A DNA stretch of 64,000 bases, from the sequence record OZ346219.1; one strand, 5' to 3'. The stretch is from a phage. Below are positions 6,541 to 27,824 of the stretch, piece by piece. The notes below the pieces were generated by a model that searched no databases, was not told the origin of the DNA, and saw nothing but the letters and a program-made list of their open reading frames with translations. A program made the position numbers and the translations under genes. Each line of letters begins with the position of its first letter. Positions within the stretch are counted from its first letter, which is position 1.

Positions 6541-6573
6541 GGGGAAGCCTTTCGGCCTCCCCTTCTTTTTATT
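6541..6573. terminator. bidirectional stem-loop (GGGGAAGCC-tttc-GGCCTCCCC) between holin t (+) and the convergent minus-strand block
   Basis: GC-rich hairpin with one internal mismatch, followed by TTCTTTTTATT on the + strand; lies between convergent genes. Confidence 0.55.
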
Positions 6574-6817
6574 GGCGCATAGACGCGCCTGAATCGCATT
6601 TTGACGCTGTATGATGAAAACAGGTAGCGTACCAGTCATCGGCTTGTTTGTCTTCGTCAGAAAACGCGTAATTGCGTTGTATGCCGTTTTCTACTTTGAC
6701 CAGTGCAATAGCTGTTTCTGGAAGATCAATCAATCGAACAAAATCACCATCTTCCCACTCTACACGAGCAATATCATAGCCCATCTCAAAGTATACAATC
6801 GCTTGTTCTAATTTCAT
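6569..6817 (-). CDS. hypothetical protein (82 aa)
   Basis: Track ORF; its ATG overlaps the stop of the upstream gene (ATGA), consistent with coupled translation. Confidence 0.45.
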   Translation of the reverse strand: MKLEQAIVYFEMGYDIARVEWEDGDFVRLIDLPETAIALVKVENGIQRNYAFSDEDKQADDWYATCFHHTASKCDSGASMRQ

Positions 6818-8812: not shown

Positions 8813-8823
8813 AATTTAACCTC

Positions 8824-9582
8824 TTACTTGCAAACGTATTGATCTACATCAATTGCGCCACCGAATGTAGGATGACGTTTTTCAAATCGAATAGTTCCGT
8901 CGTTTGGTTCGAAAACGGAGTATTCATATAGATCTTTCTTACCAACATTCTTATAAAACCCGCCTTTAGTCATAACGGTTTCTTGTACGTTTGCTTTGTG
9001 TACGTTGTATTCATCAATGTATACAAAATCAACCATCTTCCCATTTTTAATGGTTACTTTAAGATCTCCTGGTTGATTTCCATATTTGGCATACAGTGGC
9101 GCTTCTTTAATTTTTGTGGAAATTCCATCTTTCATACTCCACTCATAACGAACGGTGCATTGATAGGTAAAAGTTTCGACCTTCGGTTCTTCTACCACTT
9201 TTGCTTCCTGTTTCGGTTGTTCTTCTTCAACCTTCGCAGAAGTCTCTGAATCGCTTTCTGACGCGGTTTCTTCTTTAGGTAATACATTCATCAAGTTTTG
9301 GATTTGAGCGTTGTATACAGCCTCCAGTGGCTGAATCTGCCCGATATTGATCATTGTGTCACGAACAGTTTTATTCCAGTTTCGTTGCTCTTGTTTCAGA
9401 GACGGATCAATCTTAACAGCCTTAACATACACCTCATGAAGTTTAGAGTCCAGTGCGGAGATAGACTCATTAGCACAAATAAACTTCTCTGATTTGGTAG
9501 TAGCTTTAGCGCAATCAAAGGACGCAGCGTTAGCACCGAAAGCAGTAGCAGAAAGAACGATAGCAGCGATAATGTTTTTCAT
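8824..9582 (-). CDS. secreted protein with N-terminal LprI/DUF1311-like (lysozyme-inhibitor-type) domain
   Basis: Signal peptide MKNIIAAIVLSATAFGANA; then SFDCAKATTKSEKFICANESISALDSKLHEVY matching the C-x-x-A-x-T-x-x-E-x-x-I-C...LD..L...Y DUF1311 signature; own promoter and RBS GAGGAA. Confidence 0.6.
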   Translation of the reverse strand: MKNIIAAIVLSATAFGANAASFDCAKATTKSEKFICANESISALDSKLHEVYVKAVKIDPSLKQEQRNWNKTVRDTMINIGQIQPLEAVYNAQIQNLMNVLPKEETASESDSETSAKVEEEQPKQEAKVVEEPKVETFTYQCTVRYEWSMKDGISTKIKEAPLYAKYGNQPGDLKVTIKNGKMVDFVYIDEYNVHKANVQETVMTKGGFYKNVGKKDLYEYSVFEPNDGTIRFEKRHPTFGGAIDVDQYVCK

Positions 9583-9616
9583 AATATATTCCTCAGTGTT
9601 TTGTCTTGATGGGAGT

Positions 9617-9645
9617 ATCTTACTACTCCCTTAATCCGGTGTCAA
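9617..9645 (-). promoter_or_regulatory. sigma70-type early promoter (TTGACA-17-TAAGAT) with -10 inside a GGGAGTA/TACTCCC palindrome
   Basis: Read on the minus strand: TTGACAccggattaagggagtagTAAGATactccc, then RBS and ATG of 8824-9582. Confidence 0.55.
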
Positions 9646-9652
9646 CTACTTT

Positions 9653-9808
9653 TTAAATTTCTTCTACAGTAAAGTCTTCAATGTTGTTGTGCTCGGAGAA
9701 CGTTGCCAGACCAGCATTCCATGCATCATCCTCAGAGAAGAATACACCGTAACGTTCATATCCTTTAGCGCCTTCAAATTTAACCATTAATTTGTGAGTA
9801 TGTTTCAT
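9653..9808 (-). CDS. hypothetical small protein (51 aa; start moved to internal ATG downstream of promoter)
   Basis: The promoter at 9840-9868 lies inside the longer track ORF; RBS AGGAGA precedes the ATG at 9808. Confidence 0.4.
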   Translation of the reverse strand: MKHTHKLMVKFEGAKGYERYGVFFSEDDAWNAGLATFSEHNNIEDFTVEEI

Positions 9809-9839: not shown

Positions 9840-9868
9840 AGTATAGGGGATCGCCGATCCCCTGTCAA
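9840..9868 (-). promoter_or_regulatory. early promoter TTGACA-17-TATACT whose spacer is the palindrome GGGGATCGGCGATCCCC (two GATC sites)
   Basis: Seen on the minus strand: TTGACAggggatcggcgatccccTATACT. Confidence 0.55.
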
Positions 9869-10354: not shown

Positions 10355-10386
10355 GTGATTCCCCTTCTTTCGTTTGGTATGGGAGT

Positions 10387-10415
10387 ATATTACTACTCCC
10401 GTTTCTTTACGTCAA
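10387..10415 (-). promoter_or_regulatory. early promoter TTGACG-17-TAATAT with GGGAGTA/TACTCCC palindrome around -10
   Basis: Minus strand: TTGACGtaaagaaacgggagtagTAATATactccc. Confidence 0.5.
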
Positions 10416-10422
10416 CTCGTTT

Positions 10423-10665
10423 TTAGAAATTTTTCGCTTCTTCTTCGGTCATCATAACCGCGCATTCGTGCATAACTTTGAAAACCGGATCAATCATGTC
10501 GAATGCTTCGCGGGACAGTTTACGAGAAGCGATTTTGATTGCTTCTACGTCTTCTACTACAGGAACAAAAACAGTTTTCAGTTCGTCGAGGACGGCAGCT
10601 TCTTTTTCATTCAGGAAGATCCCAGCGTCGTACAGTGCAACTTCGATAACATTAACTTTAACCAT
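10423..10665 (-). CDS. hypothetical protein (80 aa; start at MVKVNV...)
   Basis: RBS GGAGGA 7 nt upstream of the ATG at 10665; promoter 10699-10727 upstream. Confidence 0.45.
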   Translation of the reverse strand: MVKVNVIEVALYDAGIFLNEKEAAVLDELKTVFVPVVEDVEAIKIASRKLSREAFDMIDPVFKVMHECAVMMTEEEAKNF

Positions 10666-10698
10666 TTTTATTTCCTCCAGTTCGTTTCGGTATGGGAG

Positions 10699-10727
10699 TA
10701 TAATACTACCGATGACCTTTGGCGTCA
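10699..10727 (-). promoter_or_regulatory. early promoter TTGACG-17-TATTAT (degenerate palindrome copy)
   Basis: Minus strand: TTGACGccaaaggtcatcggtagTATTATactccc; overlaps the last codons of 10706-10930. Confidence 0.45.
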
Positions 10728-10930
10728 ACTAGTTTTTTGTTATTTTCGTGAAATTTTTTCGTCGCCTCATGTGCTTTTCGCTGGGCTTCTTGTTGTGCTT
10801 GCTGGCGTGCTGCCTCTTGCGATGCCATAACAGACGCATTTGCAGCAGTTACAGCCGCGACCATCGCTGCGGTATTAGCATTTACCGTACATGCACTAGC
10901 CAGCAAAGCAATCGCAATCATTTTCTTCAT
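10706..10930 (-). CDS. small secreted protein (74 aa), signal peptide plus Ala/Gln-rich region
   Basis: N-terminus MKKMIAIALLASACTVNA is signal-peptide-like; low-complexity body, so coding status is uncertain. Confidence 0.35.
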   Translation of the reverse strand: MKKMIAIALLASACTVNANTAAMVAAVTAANASVMASQEAARQQAQQEAQRKAHEATKKFHENNKKLVDAKGHR

Positions 10931-11374: not shown

Positions 11375-11395
11375 CTTTGATTCTCCTTTTGTTTG

Positions 11396-11424
11396 GTATG
11401 GGTGTATTATGCAATGTTGGATTC
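11396..11424 (-). promoter_or_regulatory. early promoter TTGACT-17-CATAAT
   Basis: Minus strand: TTGACTtacagaatccaacattgCATAAT, followed by RBS and ATG. Confidence 0.45.
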
Positions 11425-11484
11425 TGTAAGTCAACAACTTTTTAAAATAAAAAAGCCGACCACACGGATCGGCTTAATAATCAG

Positions 11485-27300: not shown

Positions 27301-27504
27301 TTATAGCTCAAATTTCATGAAAGTTCCTACACTTTCATTTTCATTCTCTCCGTTTTCATCTAAGCCAAATTTGTAGACACTACCATCTGGCGATGTGTAA
27401 GAGAATACACGAAAACGGCCTACCGAATCAAGTTCTGTAAATTCATATTCTTTTCCGGCTTCAAAAAGTGCATATGTGCTTTTAAGACATTTCATCGTAA
27501 TCAT
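27301..27504 (-). CDS. hypothetical protein (67 aa)
   Basis: Track ORF. Confidence 0.4.
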   Translation of the reverse strand: MITMKCLKSTYALFEAGKEYEFTELDSVGRFRVFSYTSPDGSVYKFGLDENGENENESVGTFMKFEL

Positions 27505-27644
27505 TTAAGCGCCACCGACAACAGAATGAGAACTACACCAACATACATTGTGATCTCGGATAACTTTTCTGTTTTTGTTTTGTGTCCAGATAATCCGAAA
27601 ACAACAACACCGATAATAGCGGACAGCAAGCCAACGATAAACAT
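27501..27644 (-). CDS. possible small two-TM membrane protein (47 aa; alternative GTG start at 27659); not in the ORF track
   Basis: Hand-translated: MFIVGLLSAIIGVVVFGLSGHKTKTEKLSEITMYVGVVLILLSVALK; its stop overlaps the downstream ATG (ATGA). Confidence 0.3.
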   Translation of the reverse strand: MFIVGLLSAIIGVVVFGLSGHKTKTEKLSEITMYVGVVLILLSVALK

Positions 27645-27824
27645 GATGATACTAAGCACCGTCTTTCTCCTTTTTGCGTTTTTCTTTACCCGCTACACTA
27701 GGTCCACGATTGGTAATAGATCCGCTCGTTTCACCTGCTGCGATCTTCTCAGGATTGCCGCCAGCATCGCCAGCGGTCATATCTTCTTTGAGTTTATTTT
27801 CTTCAACAAACTGTTTAAAGCCAA

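Follow-up and report, generated by a model that had tools for sequence, protein, structure and literature searches.

The window analysed here is the whole of a 64,000-nucleotide stretch of phage DNA (sequence record OZ346219.1), which derives from a Krischvirus, an RB49-like T4-type coliphage. Our subject is a complete open reading frame (ORF) on its minus strand at 8824..9582, comprising 252 codons and a TAA stop and lying between topoisomerase gene 52 and the holin gene t, 2.3 kb from the latter; the flanking DNA is 93–97% identical to many Krischvirus genomes. It is the orthologue of RB49 ORF262 (RB49p262, NP_891833, UniProt Q7Y3G7), annotated as 'hypothetical protein', and the gene was found in 57 Krischvirus records. 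The original prediction for this locus, made from the nucleotide sequence alone, had placed a 252-residue product at these coordinates; both are confirmed here, the motif that it quoted falls at residues 21–52, and the strand, which it did not state, is minus. Sequence comparisons indicate that the product joins a DUF1311 (LprI-type) module to an orphan, recombining domain with the predicted fold of a beta-barrel, and that this fusion is carried by virulent phages and prophages alike (features are listed in Table 1).

The ORF is a real gene and is under strong purifying selection in both domains. It differs from its RB49 orthologue by 16 synonymous and one nonsynonymous changes (the ratio of nonsynonymous to synonymous differences per site, pN/pS, is given in Table 1), and neither the DUF1311 module nor the C-terminal domain contains a single amino-acid change relative to RB49. 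PHROG 14799, a family listed with function unknown, matches the product over its full length (expectation value, E, 2e-156), and an NCBIfam scan of the product gave no match. The domain call for RB49 ORF262 is not new, as the UniProt entry already bears the name 'Lysozyme inhibitor LprI-like N-terminal domain-containing protein'; what is added here to the annotation held in public databases is the polymorphism of the C-terminal cassette, together with the lack of the T4 genes sp and imm.

A search of 5.8 billion proteins returned 20 homologues, 15 of which were aligned. Over the first about 105 residues these are 89–100% identical, while identity between their C-terminal domains (C-domains) falls to 17–51%. 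At the DNA level the window is 93–98% identical to phages Phi1, JSE and UPWr_E1 up to about position 9175–9181 (codon 134–136, the end of the linker between the domains); similarity is lost beyond this point and regained at about 8816–8842, around the stop codon, with a recombination breakpoint at the 3' end of the linker. Eight C-domain clusters lie behind one N-terminal module (N-module). The RB49-type allele (≥96% identity) is present in 45 sequenced isolates and Phi1-like alleles, about 36% identical to the RB49 C-domain, in a further 12; the JSE allele has an unrelated C-domain, and another allele was found at the syntenic position in a metagenomic Krischvirus contig of 175 kb. Comparison of RB49-type and JSE-type C-domains with hhalign gave a probability of 4%, with nothing aligned beyond the first strand, and we therefore treat the two as unrelated or diverged beyond recognition. 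Because the protein is highly conserved within each allele, we attribute the diversity to cassette exchange rather than gradual drift, and predict from the sequence that the C-domain is a replaceable cassette exchanged at the domain boundary.

In the T4-like phages Klebsiella Marfavirus and Aeromonas Ceceduovirus, the N-module, with the common pattern ASFDC..K..EK.IC...LD..L..VY...QR.W, also heads proteins of 250 and 239 residues whose C-domains are cysteine-paired and entirely different. A copy of the gene is held by 26 of 5426 complete E. coli genomes, with N-module DNA that is 96–100% identical and, in 20 of the 26, a different C-domain. The E. coli copies include at least two C-domain types, one of which is 70–71% identical to the metagenomic Krischvirus allele. 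Inspection of two E. coli genomes placed the gene next to hicB, at the attachment-site end of a lambdoid prophage in each (L003, 8001–8795; L010, 9001–9780), a position typical of cargo genes that protect the lysogen. In strain O55:H7 DEC5A, hicB is truncated at the prophage insertion.

Other explanations of the variable domain were rejected. Masking of a receptor by the barrel predicts that C-domain type should track the tip of the tail fibre protein gp37, and no tracking was seen: relative to the window's own, gp37 tips are 48–95% identical in phages with RB49-type alleles and 61–77% identical in those with Phi1-type alleles. A toxin–immunity pair predicts a co-varying neighbour, and the downstream gene stays 92–97% identical across alleles. 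The PADLOC defence models yielded nothing credible.

Modelled alone with AlphaFold2, the C-domain forms an up-and-down barrel of eight to nine strands (predicted local distance difference test, pLDDT, 87.7; predicted template modelling score, pTM, 0.80), and it is predicted to be a disulfide-closed beta-barrel. The original prediction recorded a C-terminal domain of unknown fold; the separate domain is indeed present, but a fold can now be proposed for it. That account also missed the most distinctive feature of the locus, namely the predicted barrel as a polymorphic, recombining cassette. Judged by the collections searched, the C-domain is a sequence orphan. Pfam at E values up to 10 contained no family for the window's C-domain or for two other Krischvirus-type C-domains scanned, and the Marfavirus and Ceceduovirus C-domains gave only sub-threshold matches, to unrelated families. 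A HMMER search of 1.84 billion representative proteins with a C-domain profile recovered its own family and two spurious PKD-repeat proteins, a sequence search of the PDB found no relative, and a Foldseek comparison of the whole model with the PDB gave weak matches to the barrel only, none of them at E ≤0.001.

The N-module is assigned with Pfam PF07007 (LprI), which matches residues 24–76 (25.8 bits; gathering cut-off 22; E 1.4e-5), so that the DUF1311 signature noted previously stands; homologues P0009, P0013 and P0019 likewise pass the cut-off. We take the hallmarks of PF07007 to be an N-terminal C-x11-C followed, in the succeeding helices, by L-x-x-x-Y and Q-R-x-W-x-x-x-x-R. Residues C24, C36, L48, Y52, Q66, R67, W69 and R74 are invariant across the Krischvirus, Marfavirus and Ceceduovirus homologues. 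AlphaFold2 predicts four helices over residues 30–98 (pLDDT about 70–77), and in the same model residues 104–132 are disordered and the C-domain is all-beta. Neither the whole protein nor a profile of the N-domain gave anything useful in sequence searches of the PDB, and no solved DUF1311 structure emerged from them. A profile search for wider relatives of the N-module found few proteins, all short (93–176 residues), and therefore no informative fusion partners. The linker that follows contains 12 aspartate or glutamate residues in 33 and a correspondingly low isoelectric point (pI; Table 1), in agreement with the acidic linker described earlier.

The product begins MKNIIAAIVLSATAFGANA/ASFDC, where the slash marks the predicted cleavage point. 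Heuristic analysis identified K2, a 13-residue hydrophobic core and A-N-A followed by A at 19/20 (an AXA site for signal peptidase I, SPase I), features of Sec export that uphold, as a prediction, the signal peptide proposed originally. A heuristic scan found no lipobox and no second hydrophobic segment in the product. The A-A-S-F-D-C junction is invariant in the Krischvirus, Marfavirus and Ceceduovirus homologues. The case for a periplasmic location is strengthened by the four invariant cysteines, in two predicted pairs that each lie within one domain (C24/C36 and C142/C251). We infer that the product is a soluble, Sec-exported, periplasmic protein.

The gene also has a putative promoter of its own. 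Bare TTGACA/-10 consensus sites are no more frequent than expected by chance (16 found, against 15.4 expected from shuffled sequence). The promoter-like site upstream of the gene (9645..9617), however, lies within a 65-nt repeat family, D1, each of whose four copies stands just upstream of a minus-strand ORF, and the GGGAGTA..TACTCCC stem-loop occurs in two of these four cassettes (the second at 10379–10402). PeSL (promoter-early stem-loop) elements have been described as early promoters in the hyperplastic regions of RB49 and phi1, and proposed as drivers of modular shuffling (PMC2839356). Because the repeated 65-nt cassette matches the RB49 PeSL elements, a sigma-70-type promoter can reasonably be expected to give early expression of the gene. 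The early promoter of the original prediction thus survives as an early-type site on account of the PeSL-like cassette, and not through a consensus match alone. The next ORF begins 11 nt downstream, so that the gene would head a leftward multi-gene early unit. Its neighbours are small ORFs without Pfam match, except for a Tad2-like gene 2 kb away.

Table 1. Coordinates of the ORF262 orthologue, the parts of its product and the sequence elements upstream of it.
Feature	Position in window	Strand	Basis and remarks
ORF262 orthologue	8824..9582	minus	Complete reading frame; pN/pS 0.017 vs RB49
Signal peptide, residues 1–19 (MKNIIAAIVLSATAFGANA)	9526..9582	minus	Heuristic n/h/c-region analysis; predicted SPase I site A19/A20
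DUF1311/LprI-type helical module, residues 20–103	9274..9525	minus	Pfam PF07007, AlphaFold2; holds Cys24 and Cys36
Acidic linker, residues 104–136	9175..9273	minus	Predicted disordered; pLDDT <50, pI 4.2
C-terminal domain, residues 137–252	8827..9174	minus	Predicted up-and-down beta-barrel and replaceable cassette; invariant Cys142/Cys251
-35 hexamer TTGACA, A/T-rich stretch before it	9640..9645	minus	Consensus scan
-10 hexamer TAAGAT (4/6 consensus matches), 17-nt spacer	9617..9622	minus	Consensus scan
Stem-loop GGGAGTA-N6-TACTCCC, overlapping the -10	9611..9630	minus	Read from sequence
Shine-Dalgarno GAGGAA, 6 nt before ATG	9589..9594	minus	Read from sequence
65-nt cassette copies	9594–9658, 10364–10428, 10677–10741, 11383–11447	before minus-strand ORFs	A/T-rich stretch and -35/-10 pair in each

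Superinfection exclusion in T4 rests on Imm and Spackle. No homologue of T4 Sp or Imm was found by tblastn and phmmer in the window or in 162/164 kb of RB49 (the best match, at E 0.02–0.05, lay inside gp41), the RB49 annotation has neither sp nor imm in the syntenic slots, and the gene 41–61 slot of the window contains no ORF with a cleavable signal peptide. The earlier failure to recognise an imm or spackle-like ORF is therefore upheld: RB49-type phages have no recognisable Imm or Spackle. Between genes 41 and 61, the position of sp in T4, the window has a 52-residue ORF (27501..27659, minus strand) that would encode a small membrane protein with two hydrophobic helices and that shows no similarity to T4 Imm or Sp.

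A candidate target for an inhibitor of lysozyme is RB49 gp5, residues 189–320 of which match Phage_lysozyme (glycoside hydrolase family 24, GH24) at 34.4 bits. The RB49 endolysin belongs to Peptidase_M15_4 and is of the T5 L-alanyl-D-glutamate peptidase type, not of the T4 lysozyme (T4L) type (RB49; L014, 4719–5108 and 15150–16952, with gp5). T4 needs Spackle to spare T4L (PMC7677548). Since RB49 has an M15 peptidase as its endolysin, lysis by the phage itself would go unhindered by a general muramidase inhibitor; the tail spike being the only T4-lysozyme-type enzyme of this phage, no self-interference would arise. An inhibitor of muramidases without selectivity could be tolerated by Krischvirus.

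The DUF1311 family has now been tied to immunity against peptidoglycan-cleaving weapons. Pesticin has a toxic domain that is a muramidase resembling T4 lysozyme. The effector Pse15, which contains a pesticin domain, occurs as a pair with Psi15, an LprI-domain protein (bioRxiv 10.64898/2026.08.01.741415), and the DUF1311 protein Etsi4 rescues the periplasmic toxicity of Etse4 when the two are co-expressed (PMC12981562). In S. Dublin, the LysM/transglycosylase effector SED_RS06235 is paired with a 146-residue LprI protein, SED_RS06230 (PMC8867033), and LprI genes follow lysozyme-like or chitinase-like effectors in Pantoea (PMC9796082) and in WHIX effector loci (PMC12135965). That DUF1311 binds muramidase-type enzymes is a reasonable and partly tested idea; the name given by Pfam does not by itself count as evidence for it.

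The DUF1311 immunity proteins of type VI secretion systems (T6SS), like the phage protein, combine a Sec signal with DUF1311 (PMC12981562, PMC8867033, PMC9796082, bioRxiv 10.64898/2026.08.01.741415); they are periplasmic, and their proposed or shown role is to neutralise incoming peptidoglycan-cleaving effectors. The forms of about 146 residues are single-domain proteins, and forms of about 271 residues with a C-terminal DUF1311 also exist, whereas the linker, the polymorphic barrel, the virulent-phage carrier and the early promoter are found with the phage protein alone. M. tuberculosis LprI (Rv1541c) is exported and has an N-terminal DUF1311 followed by a small beta-barrel, as predicted for the phage protein, but it is a lipoprotein whose barrel is a recognisable MliC (PMC7933661), whereas the phage protein has neither lipobox nor MliC signature and its barrel is orphan and allelic. 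T4 Spackle (gp61.3), an inhibitor of the gp5 tail lysozyme and mediator of superinfection exclusion (PMC7677548), resembles what is predicted for the phage protein in being early, signal-peptide-bearing and periplasmic with a small helical disulfide-bonded module; it has only 75 mature residues, compared to two domains and 233 mature residues here. Salmonella ScwA is a soluble periplasmic DUF1311 protein, as the phage protein is predicted to be, and has DsbA-dependent disulfides (PMC7933661), but carries DUF1311 at the C-terminus of a 275-residue helical protein. The barrels of PliC/MliC, Neisseria ACP and Brucella PhiA, which inhibit lysozymes and peptidoglycan hydrolases, share with the C-domain a similarity of fold class only, and many unrelated barrels score higher.

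To judge from its sequence, the product is very probably made early and serves in the periplasm as a DUF1311-family accessory factor. In the mechanism that we propose, a soluble periplasmic accessory protein would be made early from its own sigma-70-type promoter and exported by Sec, with a flexible acidic linker joining the constant DUF1311 helical module to an interchangeable, disulfide-closed barrel. The DUF1311 module would bind and neutralise peptidoglycan-cleaving glycosidases entering the periplasm from outside, the candidate targets being GH24 gp5 from T4-like phages that superinfect and muramidases that T6SS delivers as effectors, and the variable barrel would provide another binding specificity, one that differs between alleles. 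The protein would be a functional analogue, and not a homologue, of T4 Spackle and of the T6SS DUF1311 immunity proteins. Binding and inhibition by the product are in every case steps that we infer. Protection of the envelope against incoming peptidoglycan-cleaving enzymes is in our assessment the best-supported mechanism, which we put forward tentatively, with inhibition of gp5 as one possibility within it.

Several observations weigh against this proposal. The PF07007 match spans only model positions 1–71 of 106, and of the four conserved cysteines reported for the family (PMC7933661) the DUF1311 module holds two, Cys24 and Cys36, with Cys142 and Cys251 belonging to the barrel. The LprI family is named for the M. 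tuberculosis protein, in which the MliC domain was reported to be sufficient for lysozyme resistance, and ScwA has no lysozyme phenotype (PMC7933661). T6SS immunity genes adjoin the cognate effector, whereas the phage gene has no adjacent effector. Comparison of the N-module with Spackle by hhalign (probability 11.6%, signal peptide only) indicates no homology, and the gene is flanked by gene 52 and t, not by 41 and 61 as Spackle is. Spackle engages a strongly positive surface of gp5 (PMC7677548), whereas both folded domains of the phage protein are mildly basic (pI 8.4–8.7). In Marfavirus a DUF1311 protein is encoded 2 kb from a spackle-like gene, and since both are present there, Spackle and DUF1311 are not simple alternatives; the Marfavirus 'spackle' aligns with T4 Sp over 40 residues only. 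Finally, a conserved lysozyme target alone leaves the variability of the C-domain unexplained. Of the LprI lysozyme inhibitor and spackle analogue that was originally envisaged, the predicted export, the DUF1311 assignment, a GH24 gp5 and the lack of sp and imm remain; no sequence relation to Spackle or MliC was found.

The variability of the C-domain bears equally on what else the protein might do. If the barrel were the working part, it could bind a variable component of the envelope (an outer-membrane protein, the periplasmic face of a receptor, lipopolysaccharide or a lipoprotein) and, in the way of Llp and Cor, keep rival phages from adsorbing or their DNA from entering, or guard progeny from debris, leaving DUF1311 as a constant scaffold or a means of localisation. 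The replacement of the cassette exactly at the domain boundary, the eight C-domain clusters from two unrelated superfamilies behind one N-module, the unrelated C-domains of Marfavirus and Ceceduovirus and the wide use of this fold class for ligand and protein binding all fit such a role; we nevertheless consider it unlikely, as the type of C-domain does not follow the gp37 tip, neither a lipid anchor nor a membrane segment is present in the protein, and no partner is known. Allelic diversity of this strength is also typical of arms-race loci, and a Tad2-like anti-Thoeris candidate shares the hyperplastic early region in which the gene is located, as might be expected of a counter-defence factor acting against an envelope-located host or prophage system (an exclusion protein or abortive-infection sensor), with barrel alleles matching defence alleles. 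This seems distinctly improbable to us, given that there was no PADLOC or other defence-related match, that no such periplasmic target is known for DUF1311, and that carriage of the same gene by prophages fits protection of the cell better than an attack on its defences.

Alternatively, the DUF1311 module may modulate peptidoglycan-remodelling enzymes of the host, binding or stabilising a lytic transglycosylase or similar enzyme in the manner of ScwA, so that wall turnover is adjusted during infection, for example by keeping the sacculus intact in lysis inhibition or by priming it for lysis. ScwA increases MltD levels and brings about lysis on overproduction, and plays no part in resistance to lysozyme (PMC7933661), and holin t, 2.3 kb from the phage gene, belongs to the same accessory region. 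We doubt this alternative too, and would not expect it to prove correct: the architecture of ScwA is different (275 residues, helical, DUF1311 C-terminal), conserved host wall enzymes do not explain allelic C-domains, and copies at prophage edges suggest a benefit to the lysogen rather than an effect on lysis timing. An inhibitor of animal c-type lysozyme of the MliC/PliC type, as in M. tuberculosis LprI, would make the barrel a very divergent MliC, and the C-domain does fall in the MliC/PliC fold class with its predicted 8-stranded antiparallel beta-barrel. The profile hidden Markov model of MliC/PliC (PF09864) gave no match to the C-domain and no motif is shared; the loop motifs of MliC, presumably SxSGAxY and YxxxTKG, are absent from it, and a lone TKG at 209–211 is not conserved in other alleles. 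The sequence weakly refutes this explanation, which we regard as very improbable indeed.

Envelope protection may extend beyond a single phage group. A broader scheme, which we regard as conceivable but rather doubtful, is that of a polymorphic periplasmic exclusion or immunity system common to T4-like phages and some E. coli prophages, in which a constant DUF1311 inhibitor would carry swappable specificity domains that recombine at the linker, each allele guarding the infected cell or lysogen against different muralytic machines (the tail tips of rivals, T6SS effectors) and the whole replacing Spackle and Imm where these are lacking. The gene encodes the only sizeable predicted exported early protein in the 64-kb window, and its allelic C-domain, exchanged between virulent phages and prophages, offers an experimental handle in the form of allele swaps and exclusion spectra. 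The outcome would show whether DUF1311 itself, and not MliC, is an inhibitor module, which matters for the reading of 'LprI family' annotations, of which there are thousands.

A crude scan of the window for signal-peptide-like N-termini gave three plausible minus-strand ORFs and one overlapping plus-strand ORF. The three are the ORF262 orthologue, a 74-residue ORF (10706..10930) and a 100-residue ORF running downward from 63121. The 74-residue ORF (MKKMIAIALLASACTVNANTAA...), 1.1 kb upstream, has a signal-peptide-like N-terminus followed by a Q/A/E/K-rich segment. No Pfam family matches this ORF, which may encode another small, exported early product. The 100-residue ORF (MSFIRKTLTAAICLTAVGSVSA...) has a signal-anchor-like N-terminus and resembles rI, its size matching that of the lysis-inhibition gene of this name in RB49 (RB49p086). 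A further putative promoter was noted in the same region as that of the ORF262 orthologue, at 9868..9840. The Tad2-like gene is an 82-residue ORF (6569..6817, minus strand), the last of the same leftward early unit and adjoining holin t; it matches PF11195 at 27.9 bits against a cut-off of 25, is a candidate anti-Thoeris sponge and was also seen in the metagenomic Krischvirus relative. In RB49, a gp38-like adhesin (RB49p079; L013, 45367..46143) lies far from the gene 37 tail-fibre locus, an arrangement unusual compared to T2/T6-type phages.

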